A DNA stretch of 64,000 nt from a virus (lineage: Duplodnaviria > Caudoviricetes). The notes under the pieces were generated by a model that was not told the DNA's origin, did no database searches, and saw nothing but the letters and a program-made list of their open reading frames with translations. Location: positions 128,001-192,000 of IMG/VR virus record IMGVR_UViG_3300046787_000508; one strand, written 5' to 3'. This document shows positions 2,314-35,473 of this stretch, piece by piece. A program made the position numbers and the translations under genes. Positions within the stretch are counted from its first letter, which is position 1, and each line of letters opens with the position of its first letter.

Positions 2314-4047
2314 TTATCTTAAAGTATCTAAACTGAAAGATTGTAAACCTCTTACTGTGATAGTACCGAAGAAACGGTTGTTAACCATTTTCTTAGCGTA
2401 TCTAGTCATGATACCTTTGATAGGTGTCATGTTGAAAGGGTTATACATTGTAGGAGTTAATTGTAACGGCACGTATGGTGCGTATACATAACCTGCGTCT
2501 AACAATGACTTACCTTTGTGTCCTACTAATATTTTGTTAGCTGGGAAGTAAGGGTCACGGTAAACTTGGTATCTACCTGCTAATGTACCAACTTTCTCAA
2601 TACCCATGTTGTATTGGTCTTGTTCAGCACCTGCGTTAGAAACGTGGAAGTATTCCAAGTCATCAAATACTGCAGAAACCTCTGAAGAAACTACAATCCA
2701 GTTAGCTCCACCTCTTAAAGTAGATTTGTGGATTTGAGCTGATAATTGGTTGATTTTTGTAACCAAAGTTTGGTTCCAGTCTTTTTGAGTGTAACCTGCG
2801 TAAGATGCTCCACCATTACCGTATTTCCACTCGTTGTAATCCCATTTAGCTGACCAAGCCGCACCTTTACGTAAATCACGTAAGATTTCACGGTCAACCT
2901 CTGCTGCGATTTGCTCAGATAATAAAGCTGTTAATTCAGCTTCAGCATCGATGTTGTGGAATGCACTAACGTCTTGAGCCAATTCAGGAGACCAAGAAGC
3001 TCTTAATTTTCTTTCAGTAACAGAAACAGTTACAGATTGTAAATCGAAAGAAACTTCACCGATGTTATCTTCAAACTCCATGTCAGAGTAAACTCTGAAA
3101 GATAATGAGATATCACTTGCAGTAAATCCTGAAGCTAAAGTTACGTTTGCGAAACCTGCAGTTGAAGAGTAAGTTTGTAAATCAACGTTAACGTAGATTA
3201 CACCTTCTTCATCACAAAGGTCATTATATTTTCCACCTGGGTAAGTAGAAGTTGATTTTTTACCGTACTCGATAATACCTTTACCGTATTTTTGAGTTAC
3301 GATGTTAAAGTTTTTAGACTCACCACCGAAGTTAACTTCAGCAGATGCTAAGAACTCTTCAGTATCCATAACAGAACCGTTTGGTCCGATTAATTTACCT
3401 TGACCATCTTTAGTGAAACCTGAGAATTTAACAACCAATGAAGATTGAGAAGTTCCAGTTAAACTTGCTCTTGTTACGTCACTTACAGTTCCGTTAGAGA
3501 AAGATACAACCGCAGCTGCGTTTAATGTTACATCGTCGTAAGAACCTTTAGAGTAATCGAACAATCCTGTTTCAGGGCTGTTACCATCTCCCGCTTCGTA
3601 GAAACGGTCGTAAAGGTTTCTTGAGTTAGCACCATATCCGTTATCTACGTTAGTGTTTGATGTAACACCATTTGCTCCACCGTAAGGTGCGTAATGGTCT
3701 CCACCATCTCTTTCCTGAATTTTAGGAATGAAGTAGAATAATTTACCGATTGGTAAGTTCATAGCTTGTACAGATACGATATCGTTAGCTAATAATTTTG
3801 AGAATACACGACGGATAATTGGGAAAACTACAGTCTCGAAAGAACCACTAGCATCAGAAACTGCTGCTTCGTTGATTAAGTAAGACGCTTGGTTTTCATA
3901 CAATTGCGCGATGTTATCTTTTTGGTGACCACCAAGACCCTCTAAGAATCCTAATTCGTCCCATTTTTTGATGGTATCTTCTTTGATAACTCTTAGGTGT
4001 TTTAACCCGATGTTACCTACCATACCTGATTCTAATAATGCTCCCAT
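2314..4047 (-). CDS. gp23: Major capsid protein, T4 gp23-like
   Basis: VQAMNLPIGKLFY, RKLRASWSPELAQD, HNIDAEAELTALLSEQIAAEVDREI, YAPYVPL, GIMTRYA motifs. Confidence 0.97.
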   Translation of the reverse strand: MGALLESGMVGNIGLKHLRVIKEDTIKKWDELGFLEGLGGHQKDNIAQLYENQASYLINEAAVSDASGSFETVVFPIIRRVFSKLLANDIVSVQAMNLPIGKLFYFIPKIQERDGGDHYAPYGGANGVTSNTNVDNGYGANSRNLYDRFYEAGDGNSPETGLFDYSKGSYDDVTLNAAAVVSFSNGTVSDVTRASLTGTSQSSLVVKFSGFTKDGQGKLIGPNGSVMDTEEFLASAEVNFGGESKNFNIVTQKYGKGIIEYGKKSTSTYPGGKYNDLCDEEGVIYVNVDLQTYSSTAGFANVTLASGFTASDISLSFRVYSDMEFEDNIGEVSFDLQSVTVSVTERKLRASWSPELAQDVSAFHNIDAEAELTALLSEQIAAEVDREILRDLRKGAAWSAKWDYNEWKYGNGGASYAGYTQKDWNQTLVTKINQLSAQIHKSTLRGGANWIVVSSEVSAVFDDLEYFHVSNAGAEQDQYNMGIEKVGTLAGRYQVYRDPYFPANKILVGHKGKSLLDAGYVYAPYVPLQLTPTMYNPFNMTPIKGIMTRYAKKMVNNRFFGTITVRGLQSFSLDTLR

Positions 4048-7497: not shown

Positions 7498-9327
7498 TTA
7501 ATCGTTTAAGATGTCTTTTAATTTATTCTCTATTTCATAAATATTCTGTTGTGCCTTATTAACGTCAAATAAATCCGCTATTTCGTCACCTTCACCCAAC
7601 ATTCCCAATATTTTATTCTTTCTACCTTCACTTAAGGGTGCTGTTCCACCTTCCATCGGTGGTGCTGAATCCATTGGTGGGGTTGACATGTCACCACCTA
7701 ATCCGGCATCTCCACCTGCTGCTGCATCTGTTCCACCCGATGATTCTAATTTAGTTCTTTCTTCTTCAGGGATACCATATTTCTTATCAACCTCATCAAA
7801 TATACCTGAACGTTTAATGATTGTGTTGGTTACCATTAACTCAGCACCTAACGCTCTCTCAAGACGTTGTTGTTGTAAATCAAGAATAACATCATTATCA
7901 CTTAAACCAAGGATATTTTTCTTGGCCCAAGTATGTGAAACAGGCAATATACCCATTTGTGATTGGTCAGATGTTGCGTCCTTATATAAAGTAATTTTTT
8001 CTTTCCATTGCTCAATACGTAATAAATCTGATTGTGCAGATGGATTAGTTAAAGACAATGTGAAATTATGTAACTCATCCTCTAACCCTAAAAGATAAAG
8101 GTGAACTAAAGCAATTTTATTTAATTCTTGAATTAATGATTTTTGTATTCTATTAATTGTTCTCGCAAAACGAATATCCATTAATGCCAAATTCTTACCA
8201 TCACCAACAACTTCTTCAAAACCTAAGAATGCCTTAGGAATACGAAGTGCTGCTAATAATTTCTTTTGGATGTACTCGATATCGGCAATCTCACCTAAGT
8301 TCTGAGCTCCCGGTAATGTTTCAATAGGATTGGTTTGAGACGGGTCACGAACAGGGATAAAATAATCTTGGTCAACAGCCATTTGATTATATCTCATATC
8401 AACCTGACCATTTTTCTGGTCCACAACTTGGTCTCTTTTAAATTTATTCGCCACACGTTGTACATAAGGTTCAATGTCCTTATCGTCCATGTTACCAACG
8501 AACACTTTGAATACACGTCTTTCAGGTGCTCTCGAAGTTCTATAAATTAACATAGCATCTTCAGCAAGTAAAAGTTGTTTCCAAATTCTTCTGATTTTAT
8601 CTAACATAGAAGTACCGTAAGGTAATTTTCTATCGTCACCCAATAATCTAAAGTGGGCAATCTCCCAAGCTTGAAATTCTAAATCTTTATTTTTCCAAGC
8701 AAATCTCAATTCTCTTGATGGAAGTTTAGTGTTTGTGTTAAAACCTGTTTGGTTTGGAACTTTTTGTACCGCACCTTCGATTCTTTCAACCTCAATGTTA
8801 GGTAATTGTTGACAACCAATAACACCCTTATCAGGGTCCACTTTTAAATAAACAAAATCATCACCATACTTACACATACCTCTAGCCCACATTTGTAGGT
8901 TAGTGTTAATGTCTAATGTATTTTCAAATAAATCAGTTAATATGTTTTGAATTCTTTTAGATTCAGAATAAATGGTTAATATCTCACCTTTTTCTGACAT
9001 TGTTGTTGACTCTTCTGCGTAAATGTCCAATGATGCCGAAACTTCAGGTGTAAATTCCATTGATTCGTAATCATAATATGCTGACAATCTATTTGGTTCG
9101 TAATAAACCGATTGATTATATAACGACTGGTCAATCTTCGCCCATTTATCTGCAACGTATTGACTTTGTTGTGCCTGTAATAACGCATTTTCAAAATCCT
9201 CCTTACTGTCAGTCTTTAGTAACTCATCTTTAGAAAATTGAAAAGATGGTGGAGCTTCAACATTAGGTCCTTGAAAACCAAATGTTTTAGTTAATTTTTG
9301 AAATATCGTTAGATTTTGTTTTTCCAT
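7498..9327 (-). CDS. gp20: Portal protein, T4 gp20-like
   Basis: AEDAMLIYRTSRAPERRVFKVFVGN, DYFIPVR, IETLPGAQNLGEIADIEY motifs. Confidence 0.95.
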   Translation of the reverse strand: MEKQNLTIFQKLTKTFGFQGPNVEAPPSFQFSKDELLKTDSKEDFENALLQAQQSQYVADKWAKIDQSLYNQSVYYEPNRLSAYYDYESMEFTPEVSASLDIYAEESTTMSEKGEILTIYSESKRIQNILTDLFENTLDINTNLQMWARGMCKYGDDFVYLKVDPDKGVIGCQQLPNIEVERIEGAVQKVPNQTGFNTNTKLPSRELRFAWKNKDLEFQAWEIAHFRLLGDDRKLPYGTSMLDKIRRIWKQLLLAEDAMLIYRTSRAPERRVFKVFVGNMDDKDIEPYVQRVANKFKRDQVVDQKNGQVDMRYNQMAVDQDYFIPVRDPSQTNPIETLPGAQNLGEIADIEYIQKKLLAALRIPKAFLGFEEVVGDGKNLALMDIRFARTINRIQKSLIQELNKIALVHLYLLGLEDELHNFTLSLTNPSAQSDLLRIEQWKEKITLYKDATSDQSQMGILPVSHTWAKKNILGLSDNDVILDLQQQRLERALGAELMVTNTIIKRSGIFDEVDKKYGIPEEERTKLESSGGTDAAAGGDAGLGGDMSTPPMDSAPPMEGGTAPLSEGRKNKILGMLGEGDEIADLFDVNKAQQNIYEIENKLKDILND

Positions 9328-9381: not shown

Positions 9382-11151
9382 TTACCTTGGTTTCCCAAAT
9401 AACCACGAAAATTCTTTATAACTATCTTTAGGTATATTCGTTGGATTACCCTCACTAAAGAGACTATTATCCATTGACATTGAACCTATTGGGTCGAATG
9501 ATGTCCCGTACGAATAGAATGTTTTACTCGCCTCATACGTTCTCTCTGACATAGTCCAAGACTCTAACATTGCTTTGTTTGCGTTTTCATTTCTCTCCAA
9601 TTGATTAAAACACATATCGCCGGCATATAATGCCATTGACATACTCATAATCGCATCATCATGTTGACCTTTCATGTGGTCAGGTCTACCGTTAAGATAA
9701 ACAAACGTATTAAGTTCACTTAATAATCTACTTGACCTAACAATAAAACCTTTTCTTAATTGTTCTTCAAACGCAGCAACGATTTGTGTTCTTTTATTGT
9801 TGAAATTTAACCCGGGTATTTTTTCAGTTGCTTTCTTGTTATATTCCCAAATATTTTGTGTGTTTATACCGTCAATATAAAGGTTTTTATAATTCATTTC
9901 CTGTAACTTTCTTGAGGTGGCAACTCCCATACCGCCTGTAATATCGATAACAATAAACGCCTCATATAATATCCCCCACTTATATGCAACCGCAGCTAAG
10001 TCATCCGGAGGTATTTTACCAATATATTCGGCAACTTGTTCCCTATCATCAAAATCCACAATATTAATTGACGAGAAGTCTTCACTATCTCCTCTACTAA
10101 CGTCGACTCCCATAATGTAACGATGACCGGCAATTGGTTCCTTCCAATGCCAAAATGTACCCTGCATGTATTTTTCTTTAGGTACACGTATCATATTCTT
10201 AGCGATGTTCTCTTGTGTCTCTCCAGGTATAACGGAATCCCCTGAACCTAAAAAGTCACATTCCAACTCCTGAGAAATCATACGTCTATCGTATTTAAAT
10301 TTCTTAGACATGGATTCAAACCACGATGAAAGAGGTTTATATCCCTCATCCAAATAGTCGTTATATTTTTCCATATCAAAATCGGTCATTACAATGTCAT
10401 CATCATTGTATTGTTCCCTATTTAACATGTAATGTACAATATCGTTACATTTTACCCATCTTAAATCTTTTGTGTAACGTGGGTCTTTAAACCATCTTAA
10501 ATCCGTAATGTGGAAATCGTTAACACCTCTAATTGCTTGGTCGTATACCCCATAATAAATTGGGTCATATCCATTGGGTGTTGAGATAAGAATAATCTTA
10601 CCACCCGTAGATAACGATGCCATAGACGCAGCCCAAAAGTCTTCACCTGCATCAATGTACGCAGCCTCGTCAAATACAAGTATGGTCGGTGTAAAACCAC
10701 GTAACGCATCGGGAGATGTTGCAACGGCTTTAACCTCACATCCATTATTTAATCTAAATCGACTTTCAGAGTTTTTATCAGGTGAGAAACCAACATTAAT
10801 CCATTCTGGCCACTGCTCCAAGAAATTTCTAACTTTGTTAGCCATTTCAATTGCGGTGTCACGTTTGTTGGCAATAATAAGAACCCTCTCAGGTTCAGTC
10901 TTCTTTGCTGTTTGTAGTTTTTTTGAAATCCAAGCTGCGGTTACGGTTGATACCCCCGCCTGTCTATATTTTCTTGTAATGTTCTCATTATACTTCTCAT
11001 AATCCTGAATCAATTGTTCTTGGTCAGGGAAAAGTTTTAATGGTACATATTTTTTTTGAGTATTATCGTAAGTTGTGAGGTATGTTCTTAAGGCATACGG
11101 TGCGTCTTTTATAATTCTTGCATATTCATGTAGTTGTTCTAATCTACTCAT
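9382..11151 (-). CDS. gp17: Terminase large subunit, gp17-like
   Basis: KYRQAGVST (Walker A), ILVFDEAA (Walker B), ISTPNG, MGVDVSRG nuclease motif, HDDAIM. Confidence 0.95.
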   Translation of the reverse strand: MSRLEQLHEYARIIKDAPYALRTYLTTYDNTQKKYVPLKLFPDQEQLIQDYEKYNENITRKYRQAGVSTVTAAWISKKLQTAKKTEPERVLIIANKRDTAIEMANKVRNFLEQWPEWINVGFSPDKNSESRFRLNNGCEVKAVATSPDALRGFTPTILVFDEAAYIDAGEDFWAASMASLSTGGKIILISTPNGYDPIYYGVYDQAIRGVNDFHITDLRWFKDPRYTKDLRWVKCNDIVHYMLNREQYNDDDIVMTDFDMEKYNDYLDEGYKPLSSWFESMSKKFKYDRRMISQELECDFLGSGDSVIPGETQENIAKNMIRVPKEKYMQGTFWHWKEPIAGHRYIMGVDVSRGDSEDFSSINIVDFDDREQVAEYIGKIPPDDLAAVAYKWGILYEAFIVIDITGGMGVATSRKLQEMNYKNLYIDGINTQNIWEYNKKATEKIPGLNFNNKRTQIVAAFEEQLRKGFIVRSSRLLSELNTFVYLNGRPDHMKGQHDDAIMSMSMALYAGDMCFNQLERNENANKAMLESWTMSERTYEASKTFYSYGTSFDPIGSMSMDNSLFSEGNPTNIPKDSYKEFSWLFGKPR

Positions 11152-28636: not shown

Positions 28637-28706
28637 GGGCCTGATGTCAACGGCAGACCACCTGATTTGCAATCAGAGTGTTTGGGTTCGATTCCCACAG
28701 TGTCCA
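28637..28706 (+). tRNA. trnA: tRNA-Ala(UGC), atypical
   Basis: Loop tt-TGC-aa; G3:U70 pair; bulged acceptor stem. Confidence 0.7.
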
Positions 28707-28712
28707 CAAATT

Positions 28713-28784
28713 GGAATATAGCTCAGTTGGTTAGAGCGTCATCCTGATACGGTGAATGTCGATGGTTCGAGTCCATCTATTCCA
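28713..28784 (+). tRNA. trnI: tRNA-Ile(GAU)
   Basis: Cloverleaf; loop ct-GAT-ac. Confidence 0.9.
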
Positions 28785-28792
28785 ACAACAAT

Positions 28793-28865
28793 GGTGATGT
28801 AGCTCAGATGGTAGAGCGCTACCCTGAAGAGGTAGGCGTCGGCGGTTCGAGTCCGTCCATCACCA
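28793..28865 (+). tRNA. trnF: tRNA-Phe(GAA)
   Basis: Cloverleaf; ctacc-ctGAAga-ggtag. Confidence 0.92.
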
Positions 28866-28869
28866 CAAT

Positions 28870-28943
28870 GACCTCGTAGCTCAGTTGGTTAGAGCACCTC
28901 ACTTTTAATGAGGGAGTCAATGGTTCGAGTCCATTCGGGGTCA
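28870..28943 (+). tRNA. trnK: tRNA-Lys(UUU)
   Basis: cctca-ctTTTaa-tgagg. Confidence 0.92.
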
Positions 28944-28949
28944 CAATAT

Positions 28950-29021
28950 GCTGCGGTAGTGAAGAGGTTAACACGTATCACTTTCTATGATAAGGCCGGG
29001 GTTCGATTCCCCGTCGCAGTA
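28950..29021 (+). tRNA. tRNA with UUC anticodon (Glu), atypical U37
   Basis: tatca-ctTTCta-tgata; intact acceptor and T arms. Confidence 0.6.
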
Positions 29022-29025
29022 CAAA

Positions 29026-29098
29026 ATACAAATTAGGCTAAGGTAGCCAAATGGTCTCCAAAACCATAGGAGAAAGTTCGATTCTTTCAATTTGTGCA
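29026..29098 (+). tRNA. trnW: tRNA-Trp(CCA), weak first acceptor pair
   Basis: atggt-ctCCAaa-accat; T loop ttcgatt. Confidence 0.7.
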
Positions 29099-29152
29099 AA
29101 ATATAAATTATGAAAAAGAAATTTGATATGCATTAGGTTAAATTCCTAATAT

Positions 29153-29374
29153 ATGAAACCGTTCAAAAACAAAGTAAGTCAAACGACAACTCACAACAAA
29201 GAGTATAAAATAGTAACAAACGATAAATTCGACCCATATTGGGATGAAGGATATAATTTTTATCCGAGATATCGTAGAGGGTATAAGAACCCAAATAAAT
29301 GTATAATGAGTTTTCAAATTAGAATGTATCGAACTTGGAAACATAATAGAAAAACACAATGGAGAATAATGTAG
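29153..29374 (+). CDS. Small basic hypothetical protein
   Basis: 73 aa, ends RTWKHNRKTQWR. Confidence 0.6.
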   Translation: MKPFKNKVSQTTTHNKEYKIVTNDKFDPYWDEGYNFYPRYRRGYKNPNKCIMSFQIRMYRTWKHNRKTQWRIM

Positions 29375-29781
29375 AGGGATTTAAGTTAAAGGCCGAAGCT
29401 CAACTTATCCAAATCAGAGAGGAAAGAAAAAAGAGGGTAAAGGAGTATTGGGAAAATCTCCCCAAGATTGTTACTCCAAACGATGTCCCTGAATTACCAA
29501 GAGTAGATATTCAGGAATGGAAAGATTTCTACGTCCCAAAATTAATTGAGGCGGGAGCAATTGGTAAGGACGATTTGATTGAAGGTCAAATTTACATTGG
29601 TGAACATAGAAGAGCGAATGTTGCTAAATGGAACGGAAATGAATTCATTTACAATAGAGAGAAATTTGGAAACGTTTATGAAGATAAATGTAACCACTTT
29701 GAAGATGATGATGGGTTCGCTTTATTTGTTCCAATTAGATTTGGTACTGAGGAAGAATATAAGCAAAATTGTTTACAATAA
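29359..29781 (+). CDS. Hypothetical protein
   Basis: 140-aa ORF within the tRNA cluster. Confidence 0.7.
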   Translation: MENNVEGFKLKAEAQLIQIREERKKRVKEYWENLPKIVTPNDVPELPRVDIQEWKDFYVPKLIEAGAIGKDDLIEGQIYIGEHRRANVAKWNGNEFIYNREKFGNVYEDKCNHFEDDDGFALFVPIRFGTEEEYKQNCLQ

Positions 29782-29789
29782 ACAATAAA

Positions 29790-29863
29790 GGGTCTCTTGG
29801 TGTAACGGATAACACGGAACACTACGAATGTTTTGTTAAAGGTTCGAATCCTTTAGAGACCTC
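29790..29863 (+). tRNA. trnR: tRNA-Arg(ACG)
   Basis: gaaca-ctACGaa-tgttt. Confidence 0.88.
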
Positions 29864-29869
29864 AAATAA

Positions 29870-29941
29870 GTCAGGTTGACCGAGTTGGTAAGGTGAAGGT
29901 CTGCAAAACCTTTTACGTTGGTTCGAATCCAACACTTGACT
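29870..29941 (+). tRNA. trnC: tRNA-Cys(GCA)
   Basis: aaggt-ctGCAaa-acctt; U73. Confidence 0.9.
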
Positions 29942-29950
29942 CTAATATAT

Positions 29951-30024
29951 GGTGATTGTAGCTGAAATGGTAAAGCACCTGATTGTGGTTCAGGCGATTG
30001 TGGGTTCGATTCCCACCTTTCACA
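29951..30024 (+). tRNA. trnH: tRNA-His(GUG)
   Basis: cctga-ttGTGgt-tcagg; G-1 present. Confidence 0.85.
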
Positions 30025-30031
30025 CAAAAAT

Positions 30032-30115
30032 TGCGGGATGTCAGAAGATGGTATCTGGGGAGTCTCATAAGCTCTTGCGTAAGCCTCGTGGGTTCGAGTC
30101 CCACTCCCGCAACCA
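30032..30115 (+). tRNA. tRNA-CAU (probable elongator Met) with 12-nt variable arm
   Basis: ggagt-ctCATaa-gctct; encoded CCA end. Confidence 0.75.
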
Positions 30116-30150
30116 TTTACAATGATATTTATATTCGGTAAATTATTACT

Positions 30151-30969
30151 ATGGAGTATAAATGTCAATATTGTAATGAAATGTTTGTTTTTGAAAAAAA
30201 ACAACAAGCGGGAGCTCACGTAACTAACTGTTCTATGAATCCCAAAAAAAAATTAATGACCGAGAAAAGGTTATTAAGTAAGGACCAAGTAAAAATAGAT
30301 AGAGTATTAAATTGTGAAAGATGTAATCAGGAATATACAATTAATATAACCAACCATCTATTCTCAATTGGTGATTATAAAAAACATTGTTCAAGAAAAT
30401 GTGCAAACAGTAGAACACAAAAAGAAGAAACAAAAAATAAAATATCGGAATCGGTTAAAATGTGGTTTGAAAAACCTGAAGTTAAAATAAAATTATTAAA
30501 AGATAAATCAAAATATAGAAGAAATAGAAAATGTCCATCTTGTAATGATGATTTTTTAACATTAAAATCGTCAAAACAAAAATATTGTTCATTGAAATGT
30601 GCAGGTTCCGCCGGAGGTAAAAACTCTAAACAGGGGAAAAGGAGTTTAAATGAAATTATGTTTTTTGAATTATGTAGTGAACATTTTGAAGGTGTAATGT
30701 CAAACGAAAACGCGTTTAATGGTTGGGACGCTGATGTTATTCTACCAAATGAAAAAATTGCAGTTTTATGGAATGGAATTTGGCACTATAAAAAAATAAT
30801 GAAAAAACATTCATTAACCCAAGTTCAAAATAGGGATATGATTAAAATAAAGGAAATAAAAAAATTAGGGTTTAAACCATATATAATAAAAGATATGGGT
30901 TCACATAATCCAGAGTTTGTGAATGAACAATTTATTATTTTTAAAAAATATTTAGAAAATATTTTGTAA
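30151..30969 (+). CDS. Zn-finger plus Vsr/EDxHD-like endonuclease (putative free-standing homing endonuclease)
   Basis: Several CxxC and CSxxC motifs; DADVILPNEKIAVLWNGIWHY...NRDMIK nuclease-like C-terminus. Confidence 0.7.
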   Translation: MEYKCQYCNEMFVFEKKQQAGAHVTNCSMNPKKKLMTEKRLLSKDQVKIDRVLNCERCNQEYTINITNHLFSIGDYKKHCSRKCANSRTQKEETKNKISESVKMWFEKPEVKIKLLKDKSKYRRNRKCPSCNDDFLTLKSSKQKYCSLKCAGSAGGKNSKQGKRSLNEIMFFELCSEHFEGVMSNENAFNGWDADVILPNEKIAVLWNGIWHYKKIMKKHSLTQVQNRDMIKIKEIKKLGFKPYIIKDMGSHNPEFVNEQFIIFKKYLENIL

Positions 30970-31018
30970 ATTAAAAAATAAATATTACATTTGTACAAGA
31001 ATTAAATGTTCATTGAAA
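30963..31018 (+). promoter_or_regulatory. Internal Bacteroidota-type promoter plus boxA-like site
   Basis: TTTG (30963) - N19 - TACATTTG (30986), then TGTTCATTGAAA. Confidence 0.65.
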
Positions 31019-31024
31019 ATATAT

Positions 31025-31096
31025 CGCAGGGTAGAGCAGTGGTAGCTCGGGAGGCTCATAACCTCTAGGTCGTCAGTTCGAATCTGGCCCCTGCAA
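31025..31096 (+). tRNA. trnfM: Initiator tRNA-fMet(CAU)
   Basis: C1:A72 mismatch; ggagg-ctCATaa-cctct. Confidence 0.88.
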
Positions 31097-31145
31097 CAAA
31101 ACATAAGATTAATTACCTTATGTATGGAAGGTTCGAAACTTCCGA

Positions 31146-31259
31146 TTGATTATGGTGTAAAGGTGCACGGCAGAACGGAGTAGGAATACGAAAAGCATTG
31201 AGCTTTCGTCGGTTCCGAAAGGGGAAACAGGATTATGGTTCGAATCCATTTTAGTCAAC
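31146..31259 (+). ncRNA. tRNA-like RNA with an expanded branched domain in place of the anticodon arm
   Basis: Acceptor ttgatta/tagtcaa, D arm and T loop ttcgaat; ~65-nt insert. Confidence 0.6.
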
Positions 31260-31260
31260 T

Positions 31261-31388
31261 ATTGTAATTGACATAACGTCCTTAGCGGGAGAGCTTAGTA
31301 TATTACGGATAATCCTTCGGTAATTTACGATATGGTAACGTAGAAACAAGAGTAAGAGGATTTGAGTTCTACCTATGTTAGTTACAAT
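31261..31388 (+). ncRNA. Candidate structured RNA
   Basis: 15-bp closing stem 31261-31275/31374-31388. Confidence 0.5.
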
Positions 31389-31392
31389 TTTT

Positions 31393-31465
31393 GGGATTGA
31401 GGTCAAACGGTTAAGATGTCGCCCTGTCACGGCGCACGGAGCGGGTTCAACTCCCGTCAGTCCCG
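31393..31465 (+). tRNA. trnD: tRNA-Asp(GUC)
   Basis: cgcc-ctGTCac-ggcg. Confidence 0.9.
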
Positions 31466-31673
31466 CAAATGAGTAAGAGATACTCAATGATTTGGCATCG
31501 TTCGAAATAATGATGTAGTTGTTTCCTTCCACGATTTTATAGAGGGGGTCTCGGAATATGGTCGTAACAAAACTACCGAGTATGTTTGACGTTTTAAGCG
31601 GTAAGACGCGATGGGTTTTTCAATACGAAAAACTGTGAATATCTACCTCGAAATAATCTCATCGGGGACAATT

Positions 31674-31759
31674 GGAAGGATGGCAGAGTTGGTCGATTGT
31701 ACCTGACTTGAAATCAGGCGTACTGCAAGGTACCGTGGGTTCGAATCCTACTCCTTCCG
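31674..31759 (+). tRNA. trnS: tRNA-Ser(UGA)
   Basis: cctga-ctTGAaa-tcagg; long variable arm; G73. Confidence 0.92.
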
Positions 31760-32033
31760 CAATTCGACGACATTTAGGGTGATTTAGTATCTAGATTACT
31801 CTTTGTAACGATTACGGAAGTACACATTTATTTGTGTTAAACGTTAAGTTCGACAGGTAGAAACTAAGTGGTTCGGAATTTGACTGAAACAAGGTGACTT
31901 GGTCTTTGAAGTATTCAAACGATTTATCGTTGTAGGTACTGAATAACAAGAAGATAAACTAAGAACATCATCGTATGAAGTTTACCTAGAGAAATTTATA
32001 AAACGATGACTGCTCGGAAAGACGGGCTCATTT

Positions 32034-32145
32034 AATTAGGTGGCGGAATTGGTAAACGTAGAGATGTTGAAGTTTAGGTATCACTATGATTAAGTTCAGA
32101 AACTTGACCTAATGCTCTAAACAGGTTCGAATCCTGTCCTGATTA
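32034..32145 (+). ncRNA. tRNA-like RNA with expanded branched anticodon domain
   Basis: Acceptor aattagg/cctgatt; Leu-like D arm; T arm acagg-ttcgaat-cctgt. Confidence 0.6.
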
Positions 32146-32335
32146 CAGGTCGTCTTTTTATATTGCTCCCGTTTGTGAGTTAACTTTATAGACGTAAAAC
32201 TTAAAGTAATGAAAATCATTCCCTTCTGGAGTTGACGGTAAAACTATCCAGTCCTGTTCCTTACCGAAGGAGTTTCCGGACGTTAATATGAAACTCAAAC
32301 GACAGTGAAAAGTAGGGACTTATAAGTTTTACCTG
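32146..32335 (+). ncRNA. Candidate pseudoknotted RNA
   Basis: Crossing long-range helices 32171-81/32292-300 and 32194-203/32323-32. Confidence 0.5.
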
Positions 32336-32350
32336 AACTTGTCCCGAATT

Positions 32351-32422
32351 GGCCCGTTCGACTATCGGTTAGGTCGTCAGGTTTTCATCCTGGAAAGAGG
32401 GGTTCGACTCCCCTACGGGCTA
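32351..32422 (+). tRNA. trnE: tRNA-Glu(UUC)
   Basis: tcagg-ttTTCat-cctgg. Confidence 0.92.
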
Positions 32423-32436
32423 CTAAATTTAATGAA

Positions 32437-32628
32437 ATGAAAAAGTTAATTTTATTATTGGTTGTGATGTTTAGTATGAGTGGTTGTTATACCACATATA
32501 GAACGCCACAAAGACACAATGGACTTAGACCTTTATGGTATAATCCAAGAACTCATCAAGGACCGTTTTATAATCATCCAAGACCAAGAAACATGAGACC
32601 ACATTTCAATCCAAGAAATCGTTGGTAA
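32437..32628 (+). CDS. Small Arg/Pro-rich lipoprotein
   Basis: MKKLILLLVVMFSMSGC lipobox. Confidence 0.7.
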   Translation: MKKLILLLVVMFSMSGCYTTYRTPQRHNGLRPLWYNPRTHQGPFYNHPRPRNMRPHFNPRNRW

Positions 32629-32669
32629 CATTTGACTTTTTAATATTTTATTAGTATATTTATATTATT

Positions 32670-32999
32670 ATGAAACAACATTAGACACATAGACTTATAA
32701 CCGTAACGAGAAAAGATATTTCTCCGGGTTATCAAATTGCACAATCGGGGCATGCAATTGCACAATTCTTTTTAGACCATCCCGATTTATCTAAAAAATG
32801 GAACAACAACTATCTTATTTCGTTGTCCATAGATTCCGAACAAAAATTACATAAACTTTTTACCGACTTAATTGAGTGTGGAATATCCGTATCCGTGTTT
32901 AACGAACCAGATATTGATAATCAACTAACGTCACTGTGCTTCCTCGAAACGGGAGATACAAAAAAATACACACATAAACTTAAATTATCTTTAAATTAA
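32670..32999 (+). CDS. Peptidyl-tRNA hydrolase 2 (Pth2)-like protein with in-frame TAG at codon 5
   Basis: ATG AAA CAA CAT TAG ACA CAT AGA CTT ATA...; translation MKQH*THRLITVTRKDISPGYQIAQSGHAIAQF...FNEPDIDNQLTSLCF; missed by the ORF track. Confidence 0.75.
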
Positions 33000-33108
33000 G
33001 AAACCATGAAATAGATACGACCACCGAACTAAACTTAATAAAGTAAAAAATGCTCGATAAAGGCATCAACTTTATCATTAAACAATAACTTTATTAAATT
33101 TAAACAAA

Positions 33109-33447
33109 ATGAAAAAATACACAAATAACCCAACACAAATGATTAAATGTACATTCTCTAACTCAGTTCATAAAATATTAGAACCTAATATCGATATTAA
33201 AAATCGTGAAAGATGGAGAAAAGAAAATCGTGACAAATACAATTTCACTGATGAACAAAAAATAGAAATGTTCGATAAGATAATGAAAATACATAAAGAA
33301 ACATCTAATGAATTAACATCTTATCAATTTGATAGGAGAGACAAAAAAAGGTTACACGCTGACCGTGTCGCTCGAGGTTATAAATTTAAAACAAAAACCA
33401 AAAAGGAAGAATATGAAAAAAATATTCAGAAAGATTTGGTATTATAA
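33109..33447 (+). CDS. Hypothetical basic protein
   Basis: 112-aa ORF. Confidence 0.6.
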   Translation: MKKYTNNPTQMIKCTFSNSVHKILEPNIDIKNRERWRKENRDKYNFTDEQKIEMFDKIMKIHKETSNELTSYQFDRRDKKRLHADRVARGYKFKTKTKKEEYEKNIQKDLVL

Positions 33448-33466
33448 AAAATAAACAATACATTTG
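33435..33466 (+). promoter_or_regulatory. Bacteroidota-type promoter upstream of the suppressor tRNA
   Basis: TTTG (33435) - N20 - TACATTTG (33459). Confidence 0.7.
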
Positions 33467-33575
33467 TATTATAATTTACAACCAAAGAGACATTGACTTA
33501 GTAACCCAGTGGAGGCACACATAAACTGTATTAGTGAAAAGTTGAGGTGATAGACCACCATGTTGTAAATTATTT

Positions 33576-33647
33576 GTCCTGTTAGTGTAGTGGTAGCACG
33601 AAGGTCTCTAAAACCTTTAAGGGTCGGTTCGAGTCCGACACGGGGCA
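33576..33647 (+). tRNA. Amber suppressor tRNA(CUA)
   Basis: Acceptor gtcctgt/acggggc; aaggt-ctCTAaa-acctt; T arm gtcgg-ttcgagt-ccgac. Confidence 0.88.
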
Positions 33648-33671
33648 CAAAAATAAAAAAAATAAAAAATA

Positions 33672-33703
33672 TTTGTTTACTATTGATATTTTTTGTAAAT
33701 TTG
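33672..33703 (+). promoter_or_regulatory. Bacteroidota-type promoter for tRNA cluster 2 leader
   Basis: TTTG (33672) - N20 - TAAATTTG (33696). Confidence 0.7.
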
Positions 33704-33720
33704 CATATACTTATTAAACG

Positions 33721-33828
33721 ATGAAGAATATAAATAACATATTGACGAGTACGAGACCCCTTAACAATGGTAATGGGTATGGTGTGCAACCGTTAAGTTA
33801 CTTATGTTCGGATATTATTGAGATGTAA
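33721..33828 (+). CDS. Putative attenuator leader peptide 2 (35 aa)
   Basis: MKNINNILTSTRPLNNGNGYGVQPLSYLCSDIIEM; codons 3-28 all read by cluster-2 tRNAs. Confidence 0.78.
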   Translation: MKNINNILTSTRPLNNGNGYGVQPLSYLCSDIIEM

Positions 33829-33850
33829 ATAAATTTTACAATTATAAATC

Positions 33851-33890
33851 AACCCGAACAAATTAAAAAAATGTTCGGGTTTTTTGTTTT
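33851..33890 (+). terminator. Attenuator terminator before tRNA cluster 2
   Basis: aacccgaaca-loop-tgttcgggtt plus T tract. Confidence 0.85.
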
Positions 33891-33933
33891 AATTAAATTT
33901 TATTATTACATTTGTAACGTAGTTCATTGACAT
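33883..33933 (+). promoter_or_regulatory. Promoter-like site overlapping the terminator plus boxA-like site
   Basis: TTTG (33883) - N20 - TACATTTG (33907); AGTTCATTGACA at 33921. Confidence 0.55.
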
Positions 33934-33947
33934 TCTGAGAAAGTAAC

Positions 33948-34032
33948 GCCCGGGTGGTGTAATGGTAGCCACGAGGGACTTAAAATCCCTTGGACAGAAA
34001 CGTTCGTGCCGGTTCGAGTCCGGCCCCGGGTA
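33948..34032 (+). tRNA. trnL: tRNA-Leu(UAA)
   Basis: aggga-ctTAAaa-tccct; long variable arm. Confidence 0.92.
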
Positions 34033-34080
34033 CGAAGCTTAGTTCACACTATACTCGCGAAGAGGAGGAAGTGTATTTTT

Positions 34081-34154
34081 GGTTCCATAGCTCAATTGGA
34101 TAGAGCAACACACTTCTAATGTGTAGGTTTCAGGTTCGACTCCTGATGGAATCA
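34081..34154 (+). tRNA. trnR: tRNA-Arg(UCU)
   Basis: acaca-ctTCTaa-tgtgt. Confidence 0.92.
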
Positions 34155-34212
34155 CACCGGTGGTAGTTTTGAGGTTGACGAATTCTACATAAAAAAAATA
34201 ATTCATCCACTA

Positions 34213-34285
34213 CTAGGTGTGGGAAAGTTGGTAATCCGCGTGGTTTGGGACCACGAGACCGTAGGTTCGAGCCCTACCACTTAGA
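34213..34285 (+). tRNA. trnP: tRNA-Pro(UGG)
   Basis: cgtgg-ttTGGga-ccacg. Confidence 0.92.
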
Positions 34286-34363
34286 CGAGATGGTGATAAC
34301 CAATCAGCAGCCAAAATGTATACAGAAATGCTGGAGGTGACAAACGGGGAGAGACCCGTACAT

Positions 34364-34443
34364 ACCCGAGTGGTGGAATGGTATACACAGCGGTCTTAGA
34401 AACCGTGTCGAAAGGCGTGTCGGTTCGAGTCCGACCTTGGGTA
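34364..34443 (+). tRNA. trnL: tRNA-Leu(UAG)
   Basis: gcggt-ctTAGaa-accgt; variable arm. Confidence 0.92.
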
Positions 34444-34451
34444 CGAAAATT

Positions 34452-34523
34452 GGCCTTGTAGCTCAGTGGTAGAGCAGTTGACTGTTAATCAACTGGTCGT
34501 TGGTTCGAATCCAACCGGGGCCT
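34452..34523 (+). tRNA. trnN: tRNA-Asn(GUU)
   Basis: gttga-ctGTTaa-tcaac. Confidence 0.92.
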
Positions 34524-34594
34524 CAAAAAGTTTAACCATATAAGGTTGAATAAGATGACAGACGAAAGTTATCTCTTGAGGGTAAAATGAAAAG

Positions 34595-34655
34595 ATTGGT
34601 AGAGTGGTACTACGGGGTGACGGCCCAAACGCAGGTTCGATTCCTGTATCGAAGT
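34595..34655 (+). pseudogene. Degenerate tRNA-like remnant
   Basis: D-like tggtagagtggta and T arm gcagg-ttcgatt-cctgt, but no 7-nt anticodon loop. Confidence 0.4.
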
Positions 34656-34717
34656 AATTTGAGAGTAAAGGTAAAAGGTATTAATAGCGGTCTAAAAACT
34701 GGGTTAAACTTTGATAT

Positions 34718-34799
34718 GGGAGCATCGCATAGCGGCAATTGCAGAAGACTGTAAATCTTCCCTCTTTCGAGTTCGTAGGTTCGAGTCCTACTGCTCCCA
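34718..34799 (+). tRNA. trnY: tRNA-Tyr(GUA)
   Basis: gaaga-ctGTAaa-tcttc; variable arm. Confidence 0.92.
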
Positions 34800-34813
34800 C
34801 AAAAAAACAAATT

Positions 34814-35467
34814 ATGGCAACATTAGAAACACAGTACAAGGATTTTTTGGTTAAAAACCCAAGTTCAACGTTTACATTTGAAGAATGGAAAAACGACCAC
34901 GGGGTTAAGATTGCAAATGCAGTTGAACGTTCTTCCTCACTTAAGAAAATTATTGATGAGATTAGAACACCCGAATACAAGGAAAGGAGATTAAAAGAAA
35001 AAAAAGAAAGTAAAGAAAGATTAACCGCCGAGTATCAGTTTGGATATTATGTTGGTGAAGAAATTGTGACAAGGCATTTACCAACGATTACAACAGATAT
35101 GATAAAGTCTCGTAATCAAATTAAAGTTTCGGATGAAGACACTGAAGAAAACAAACGTATACATGACCTATGGTGGGAGAGTGGAAAATATGGTTCCAAT
35201 CCTGACGATGTGGTTAATAAAGAAACTTGGAAATTATATCGACAACATATGGTTATGTTGGAAAAGAAGTATCTCCCAAATCCTTTAAAATGTAATATTG
35301 ATTTATTAAATATTCGTGACGAGAAAGATTTTAAAGATGGGTTAATCCATTCGTTGTGGAATTGTGATATGTGTACTTACAGTTTAAAACCTGAAGACAT
35401 TAAGATATACGATGATGAAGATATGTGGTTTACCATCATTGAATTTATCCTAAGAGACGAAGAATAA
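34814..35467 (+). CDS. Hypothetical protein
   Basis: Start moved to MATLETQ (34814) because the ORF-track start lies inside tRNA-Tyr. Confidence 0.75.
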   Translation: MATLETQYKDFLVKNPSSTFTFEEWKNDHGVKIANAVERSSSLKKIIDEIRTPEYKERRLKEKKESKERLTAEYQFGYYVGEEIVTRHLPTITTDMIKSRNQIKVSDEDTEENKRIHDLWWESGKYGSNPDDVVNKETWKLYRQHMVMLEKKYLPNPLKCNIDLLNIRDEKDFKDGLIHSLWNCDMCTYSLKPEDIKIYDDEDMWFTIIEFILRDEE

Positions 35468-35473
35468 TAGTTT

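Follow-up and report, generated by a model that had tools for sequence, protein, structure and literature searches.

An early amber codon in a PTH2-like hydrolase gene of a standard-code phage and its association with a phage-encoded suppressor tRNA

The locus and its genes

The window analyzed here is a stretch of 64,000 nucleotides, bases 128001-192000 of a 202,894-bp IMG/VR virus contig (IMGVR_UViG_3300046787_000508) that is estimated to be 60% complete. On its plus strand we read directly a leader of four codons closed by an amber stop, ATG AAA CAA CAT TAG (M-K-Q-H-amber, 32670-32684, with the ATG at 32670-72 and the TAG at 32682-84). The leader is in frame with a PTH2-like hydrolase domain on the same strand (32685-32999), which comprises 104 sense codons (32685-32996) and ends in a TAA at 32997-99. 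The 104-residue product downstream of the TAG is devoid of methionine. The earliest canonical start after the TAG is a TTG at 32823, codon 46, and a start at that position would delete strand 1 and helix 1. The TAG is followed by ACA CAT AGA CTT ATA, and no usable start precedes strand 1.

Upstream of the leader lies a promoter-like element, TTGACT-N17-TATATT (32632-32660, plus strand, 10/12 sigma-70-like matches), which can also be read as TTTG (32631-32634) followed by 20 nt and TATATTTA (32655-32662). The 3' end of TTGACT-N17-TATATT is 9 nt upstream of the leader ATG, so that the 5' UTR would be very short or missing. The region contains no more promoter-like matches than shuffled sequences do (8 vs 9.1). 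An arrangement of TTTGACT, TATATTTAT and ATG with identical spacing recurs in five relatives (L098, L024, L109, L110, and L111), and it is solely through this conserved, fixed spacing that a promoter, inferred from the sequence alone, remains a plausible possibility. The motif RTATTTAT was also considered as a late promoter. In 31/67 cases it occurs 8-40 nt before a gene start, for 30/65 with the reversed control, and we make no claim for it.

The hydrolase gene is followed, after 6 nt, by a second amber-gated element, a micro-ORF on the plus strand with the sequence ATG AAA TAG ATA CGA CCA CCG AAC TAA (MK-amber-IRPPN, 33006-33032), which ends 76 nt before the next gene. In relatives, the micro-ORF reads MK-TAG-IRGPT (L098, L003, L103, L104), with IIRGPT (L023) or ITIRGPT (L107) after the stop, or MKTH-TAG-RIRCPT (L099). 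Its codons show synonymous changes, and the peptide is therefore under selection. Inspection by eye found no conserved hairpin in the spacer between the micro-ORF and the next gene. The latter, which lies between the hydrolase gene and the tRNA, encodes a conserved, basic, all-helical protein of 112 aa (33109-33447, plus strand) found in 25 loci of the clade of the window. Its AF2 model has a pLDDT of 85, and we obtained no informative match for it in Pfam, PHROG, Atlas, or fold searches.

A suppressor tRNA with anticodon CUA (33576-33648, plus strand) begins 576 nt past the hydrolase stop, in the same orientation as the hydrolase gene; between the two, the plus strand is free of terminator-like sites. 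It has a good ARAGORN cloverleaf and scores 59.6 bits against the Rfam tRNA model, for which the gathering score is 29. The anticodon loop is C-U-CUA-A-A, with U33 and A37 present, the discriminator base is A73, and no CCA is encoded. The canonical features of an amber suppressor tRNA (cloverleaf, anticodon CUA, U33, and A37) are all met. Its closest counterpart among the tRNAs of the phage is tRNA-Cys, with 71% identity and an identical anticodon stem, but tRNA(CUA) has A73. This nearest match is not decisive for the identity of the suppressor.

The tRNA(CUA) sits within an array of about 27 tRNA genes (28637-36232). Three Rfam tRNA matches were not called by ARAGORN (31393-31465, 39315-39440, and 28637-28706 on the plus strand), and the one at 39315-39440, being 126 nt long, may contain an insert or an intron. 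The array also includes an ORF of 272 aa (30151-30969, plus strand) with a weak match to an HNH endonuclease (phrog_1271, E 1e-5) and a faint one to NUMOD3. On such weak matches, it can only tentatively be regarded as a homing endonuclease. Further downstream, we identified a tmRNA (43073-43482, plus strand; Rfam RF00023, 81.3 bits vs a gathering score of 47) that the combined tRNA/tmRNA scan of the window by ARAGORN had missed. Together, the tmRNA, the tRNA array, and the PTH2-like gene suggest a ribosome-rescue toolkit of the phage, as inferred from sequence.

The hydrolase protein matches the Pfam profile of peptidyl-tRNA hydrolases 2 (PF01981) with 20.4 bits (E 6e-4), below the cut-off of 23, and phrog_1866 with an E-value of 3e-12. 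The 58 aligned family members all reach E-values of 0.01 or lower against PF01981 (best 1.3e-10), and the family profile matches the archaeal Pth2 2zv3 over its full length (E 1.2e-7) and human Bit1 (E 1.4e-5). The AlphaFold (AF2) model of the protein has a pLDDT of 93.1 and a pTM of 0.87. Its top Foldseek matches are solely Pth2 (2zv3, TM 0.76, rmsd 2.2; Bit1 1q7s, TM 0.79), and the structural matches among the Swiss-Prot models of AFDB are Pth2 or PTRHD1 in 30/30 cases. The protein is thus predicted to have the PTH2 alpha/beta fold. In the model, the first three residues of the read-through product show disorder, and since the gate lies in this disordered N-terminal tail, the identity of the inserted residue should not matter. 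Downstream of the gate, the reading frame is unbroken, shows purifying selection, and gives a protein with a good predicted fold.

The active site is another matter. The catalytic lysine and aspartate of Pth2 are Lys18 and Asp86 in the Sulfolobus enzyme. When the family profile is aligned to 2zv3, the phage family shows a near-invariant tyrosine (Tyr21) at the second lysine of GKGK and a glutamate (Glu79 of E-P-D) at the aspartate of R-D-A-G, whereas Gln25, His28, and Thr87 of the active-site region are kept. The phage protein does not meet the expectation of a catalytic Lys and Asp, and for this reason we file it as PTH2-like rather than as a proven Pth2. These two replacements also raise the possibility, inferred from the sequence, that the substrate is not ordinary peptidyl-tRNA.

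The phage uses the standard code, and the gating by TAG is local rather than genome-wide, a result that applies to a contig covering about 60% of the genome. The coding density under code 11 is 0.94 over all 202,894 bases, and reading TAG as glutamine gives no gain of coverage, over the whole contig, beyond that of a control reading TGA as tryptophan. The 213 genes called on the contig end in TAA (182), TAG (18), or TGA (13), and the 18 genes ending in TAG have a back-up stop at a median of 4.5 codons. The genes for the major head protein (2314-4047), the portal (7498-9327), and the large terminase (9382-11151) lack in-frame TAG and are intact under code 11. With this density, no gain from TAG as glutamine, and intact late genes, we rejected a code-15 (TAG-recoded) phage for the part of the genome that is covered. 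One hallmark of code 15, a phage-encoded tRNA(CUA), is nevertheless present in this standard-code contig. We found neither an RF-1 domain nor a GlnRS/GluRS catalytic domain in the same 60%. No other gene with an early TAG was convincing in the 203-kb contig, as the candidates overlapped longer genes, and the hydrolase gene and the adjacent micro-ORF remain the sole convincing gated cases. A free-standing candidate at 43116-43262 was discarded, being inside the tmRNA gene.

A sequence-only reading of this region had made several of these claims, and its observation was confirmed. The leader followed by 104 in-frame sense codons, the absence of an in-frame ATG after the TAG (the first canonical start being the TTG at codon 46 of a Met-free product), and an intact tRNA(CUA) some 580 bp downstream were all confirmed, the latter at 576 nt by both ARAGORN and Rfam. 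Local rather than genome-wide recoding held over the 202,894 bases. The host-type promoter it proposed is present as a sequence and is also sigma-70-like; it is not enriched over shuffles, and its support is the conserved spacing. The Pth2-like identity held for the fold (AF2 and Foldseek), with the PF01981 score of 20.4 under the cut-off of 23 and the catalytic Lys and Asp replaced. A start at a near-cognate codon after the TAG would have refuted the reading, and there is no plausible one in the window gene.

Conservation of the early stop and its association with cognate tRNAs

We collected homologues from IMG/VR, JGI metagenomes, GenBank phages, and species-representative genomes, which resulted in 171 loci and 136 distinct core sequences. 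The species-representative genomes contributed four matches, all gated and all on phage-like MAG contigs. An ATG with 1-13 further codons and then a stop is found in 109/136 distinct homologues, and the leader has 2-4 codons in 97 of these 109. The homologues span a deep divergence (35-72% identity), and in none of the gated ones does the stop lie beyond the first codons: it is 1-12 codons upstream of the first beta-strand, with no canonical start in between. The closest relative (L098, 72% identity) has an identical MKQH-TAG leader. In other relatives the leader peptide varies (MRKN, MKNL, MKRH, MKNY, MKNM, MKKQ) and the TAG is kept. In 10 loci, a GGAG precedes the leader ATG by 6-10 nt, and this Shine-Dalgarno-like element leads us to take the leader ATG as the initiation site.

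The gate is almost always amber, with TAG in 103/109 and TAA in 6/109 gated homologues, whereas only 10.5% of the long ORFs of these loci end in TAG. The flanks of the gated loci behave as standard code, and a further TAG occurs in just 6/109 gated genes. The base after the gate is A in 81/109 and G in 27/109 homologues, i.e., a purine in 108/109, whereas after the genuine terminal TAGs of the same loci the next base is most often T (17/44). A purine after UAG is known to favour suppression in E. coli. The codon after the stop is ATT in 67/109 homologues. Among isoleucine codons following the gate, ATT accounts for 67/72, compared with 49% expected. This nucleotide-level excess may reflect sequence context or AUU initiation in those homologues, and both remain possible. 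In 26 homologues the codon after the stop is GTT or GTA, and in others it is ACA, AAC, AAA, or AGC. AUU initiation offers no explanation for these GTT/GTA cases, for the codons ACA CAT AGA CTT ATA of the window gene, or for the covariation with the anticodon described below.

Not all members of the family are gated. An ungated, higher-GC clade of 15 members is nested within the gated clades, mostly without suppressors. L064 (IMG/VR 3300037010_001382) is the only AT-rich member that lacks both a canonical start and an in-frame leader: immediately behind a tRNA-Gly, it has a leader reading ATG AAG CGG ATC TAA that is shifted by one base relative to the frame, with no suppressor nearby. An indel could possibly account for this exception. 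The loci of the Prevotella phages Lak-B7, Lak-B5, and Lak-C1 (L015-L017) have TAG-recoded flanks, the coverage of which rises from 0.41 to 0.76 when TAG is read as glutamine. Their PTH2-like gene is ungated and has an ordinary long N-terminus. The tRNA found about 0.6 kb upstream of this gene has the anticodon UUA instead of CUA.

A tRNA(CUA) is found in the flank of 73 TAG-gated loci, on the strand of the gene. When considering only the TAG-gated loci with at least 2 kb on both sides, 46/56 have a CUA tRNA and 10/56 have none within 4-5 kb. The suppressor tRNAs are all on the strand of the gated gene (49/49 tallied, and all marked '+' in another set). In a first set of 40, the distances between gene and tRNA range from -1.9 to +3.6 kb and are mostly between +0.6 and +1.9 kb. 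The genes gated by TAA are accompanied by a tRNA(UUA) in 5/6 cases and by a CUA tRNA in none, the sixth being on a 1.2-kb contig. In one TAG-gated locus, the short flank contains UUA alone; through wobble, ochre-type anticodons are able to read UAG as well. The association between the type of stop and the anticodon is highly significant (Fisher p = 2.7e-7), with the caveat that the counts are not all phylogenetically independent. In a maximum-likelihood tree, gating by TAA has at least three origins inside TAG-gated clades. The suppressors of the TAA type are only 75-79% identical to the CUA ones, which rules out that they are one-base derivatives of these. The comparison shows that the gate is conserved, specific of the cognate stop, and linked to the tRNA.

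One relative of 425 kb (97% complete, standard code), whose genome we read from end to end, has no CUA tRNA near the gene. Its single tRNA(CUA) (125640-125713) is 5.7 kb upstream on the same strand, and the main array, with some 50 tRNAs, is about 50 kb away from it. When we searched this relative for other gated genes, the TAG candidates were no more numerous than those of a TGA control. This megaphage, an IMG/VR contig of 425,361 bp (G001; loci L182-L203), carries 53 tRNAs, one of which has the anticodon UCA (8783-8856). GenBank lists the contig under a 'Pacearchaeota' MAG (L179), probably through a binning error. In five other loci (L072, L090, L093, L088, and L097), the hydrolase gene has an ordinary start, yet is immediately followed by a suppressor tRNA, either CUA or UUA. 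The linkage between gene and tRNA is therefore wider than the gate.

Gating is also seen in another gene. In sister clades, the PTH2-like gene is directly followed, in the place taken by the micro-ORF in the window, by a conserved protein of 81 aa gated by M, MK, MM, or ML and then TAG in 18 loci (e.g., L018:5345-5596; also L019-L027, L100-L102, and L109-L114), with the motif …FHFNKKHL…PMWV.KCRGDTYYV…. It has no match in Pfam or PHROG and is absent from the contig of the window.

Proposed mechanism and alternative explanations

Considering this comparative evidence, and in the absence of any experiment, we favour the view that the suppressor tRNA encoded by the phage gates the synthesis of the hydrolase. 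We likewise regard the gene as probably a working, translationally gated gene rather than a broken one, again with no experiment to support it. In this model, ribosomes would initiate at the ATG at 32670 and reach the UAG at codon 5. If RF1 wins there, only a tetrapeptide would be made; if tRNA(CUA) decodes the UAG, translation would run on into the 109-residue hydrolase with its PTH2 fold. How much hydrolase is made would depend on the balance between RF1 and the suppressor tRNA that has been processed and charged, such that mRNA and tRNA would form a natural two-input gate. The expression, processing, and charging of tRNA(CUA), as well as its competition with RF1, are assumed parts of the model. 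The enzyme may then cleave peptidyl-tRNA or a related acyl-tRNA, although hydrolysis is inferred and untested, and the capacity to recycle tRNAs and ribosomes would be supplied in step with the read-through of the stop codon. Such a coupling is conceivable in a phage that has its own set of about 27 tRNAs, a tmRNA, and a PTH2-like enzyme, but it remains inferred. A caveat is that the 18 phage genes with a terminal TAG would likewise be exposed to read-through by a strong suppressor.

In terms of what the sequence-only reading had proposed, the conservation of the early TAG and its co-occurrence with a CUA tRNA, for which it had suggested a survey of homologues, held, with an early stop in 109/136 and a cognate suppressor nearby. 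The dependence of hydrolase synthesis on the suppressor is supported by comparison and not by experiment. Peptidyl-tRNA hydrolysis, the limitation of RF1, and a purpose in the recycling of ribosomes and tRNAs remain inference only.

The alternative that best survives, which we still consider unlikely, is a neutral or incipient recoding, in which the suppressor makes TAG tolerable and TAG drifts to indifferent sites without any regulatory role, or with that of enforcing the retention of the tRNA. Borges et al. (bioRxiv 10.1101/2021.08.26.457843) proposed that the acquisition of suppressors precedes recoding, and described standard-code relatives that carry them. The existence of such relatives is in line with this alternative, as are the location of the gate in a disordered tail and the ungated family member of the TAG-recoded Lak phages. 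However, drift should scatter TAGs across numerous genes and sites, and the 203 kb have just the hydrolase gene and the adjacent micro-ORF as convincing cases. Furthermore, the stop is confined to the first codons of one family across 35-72% identity, was retained through at least three switches to TAA with matching tRNAs, and has a 3' context unlike that of true terminators.

A second alternative is that the leader is a mini-uORF followed by reinitiation at an adjacent near-cognate codon, often AUU, with no need for a suppressor. We judge it very unlikely. It has in its favour the ATT codon after the stop in 67/109 homologues and its over-representation among isoleucine codons, and AUU is known as a rare start codon of bacteria, as in infC. 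Yet, the codons after the TAG in the window gene offer no usable start before strand 1, and 26 homologues have GTT or GTA, and others ACA, AAC, AAA, or AGC, in this position. Reinitiation predicts neither the use of the rare TAG over TAA, nor the covariation of TAA with UUA, nor the in-frame position of every leader that was found. Finally, a pseudogene, an assembly error, or a sequencing error, which might be suspected when a short gene on a metagenome-derived contig is interrupted once, in frame, close to its start, is all but excluded by the same feature in 109 distinct homologues from independent samples (IMG/VR, JGI metagenomes, GenBank megaphages, and MAGs) and by a downstream frame that is intact, under purifying selection, and has a good predicted fold. 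The covariation of TAG with CUA and of TAA with UUA, with its three or more switches, is predicted by none of pseudogenization, sequencing error, or reinitiation.

There is a bolder version of the gating model, which taken as a whole seems improbable to us. The cassette would be a closed feedback controller, in which the leader stop senses the activity of the suppressor and the PTH2-like enzyme, whose active site has Tyr where Lys is usual, trims this activity by deacylating the suppressor tRNA or releasing its peptidyl form, while the micro-ORF would encode an arrest peptide dependent on read-through. Read-through would then be held at a level that a standard-code phage, with its 18 TAG-terminated genes, can tolerate. 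If true, this controller would be an analogue, at the level of the tRNA, of the autoregulation of RF2.

Comparison with known systems

The closest known systems are the recoded phages of code 15 (crAss-like, Lak, and others), in which TAG stands for glutamine and suppressor tRNAs are present (bioRxiv 10.1101/2021.08.26.457843; Peters et al., PMC9523058). A phage-encoded tRNA(CUA) that reads in-frame TAGs is common to both, and the authors of these works proposed a tRNA-dependent delay of certain genes until the tRNA is active. In contrast, the phage studied here has the standard code, with TAG ending 18/213 genes, and gating is confined to one codon, always at the same place, of a single small gene family and to the neighbouring micro-ORF. 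The gate is physically linked to the tRNA and covaries with its anticodon, and the gated gene is related to translation rather than structural or lytic. Borges et al. (bioRxiv 10.1101/2021.08.26.457843) do not mention peptidyl-tRNA hydrolase. Gating by a stop at a single codon of a single gene would be a means of regulation that occurs in nature and is distinct from wholesale recoding, and perhaps a step that precedes it.

Suppressor tRNAs are known in recoded phages and in some standard-code ones (bioRxiv 10.1101/2021.08.26.457843; PMC13037316). Those of standard-code phages had so far no known target, and the hydrolase gene provides a conserved one. In the open-access literature that we searched, which does not cover subscription journals, we found neither suppressor tRNAs nor early stops linked to PTH2 or peptidyl-tRNA hydrolase. 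On at least three occasions, stop and anticodon have changed together, which is unusually direct comparative evidence for the decoding of a natural in-frame stop by a specific tRNA.

As for the enzyme, PTH2 genes are known in jumbo phages (Iyer et al., PMC7824862), likewise large phages with tRNA arrays, and the survey mentions neither gating nor suppressor tRNAs. The archaeal and eukaryotic Pth2 (PF01981; PDB 2zv3, 1q7s, 1xty) share the fold (TM 0.76-0.79) and the Gln, His, and Thr. The phage family differs from them by the near-invariant Tyr for the Lys of GKGK and the Glu (E-P-D) for Asp. It points to a PTH2 subfamily with a changed active site and a biology tied to read-through.

Other likenesses concern the short reading frames. 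The bar minigenes of phage lambda and other ORFs of 2-4 codons followed by a stop yield drop-off of peptidyl-tRNA, the substrate of Pth. The phage leader is a mini-ORF of the same class, in which drop-off may be supposed only by analogy. The bar minigenes are separate and out of context, whereas this mini-ORF is in frame with the hydrolase. Arrest peptides of the SecM/RAPP type have an R-A-G-P or R-A-P-P core at the arrest site. The micro-ORF peptides share a similar R-(G/P)-P core (IRPPN in the window, IRGPT in relatives), but lack the Ala and would give a nascent chain of just 8-9 residues. By this analogy, an arrest peptide is a possible lead and no more.

The gene for RF2, prfB, is autoregulated through an early in-frame UGA. 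There, as would hold for the phage gate, a translation factor gene has a stop early in its frame that senses the decoding at that very stop. However, prfB relies on a +1 frameshift and senses its own product, whereas the phage gate would rely on in-frame read-through and sense a tRNA, with any feedback by the hydrolase being only hypothetical. Amber suppression has also been used in synthetic AND gates, which combine the supD tRNA with a T7 RNA polymerase gene carrying amber codons, and in laboratory amber mutants grown on suppressor hosts. In both, as in the phage cassette, the output requires an mRNA and a suppressor tRNA. Unlike the synthetic gates, the phage cassette is natural, conserved, self-contained, and the size of a transcription unit, and it would represent a compact natural AND gate of mRNA and tRNA.
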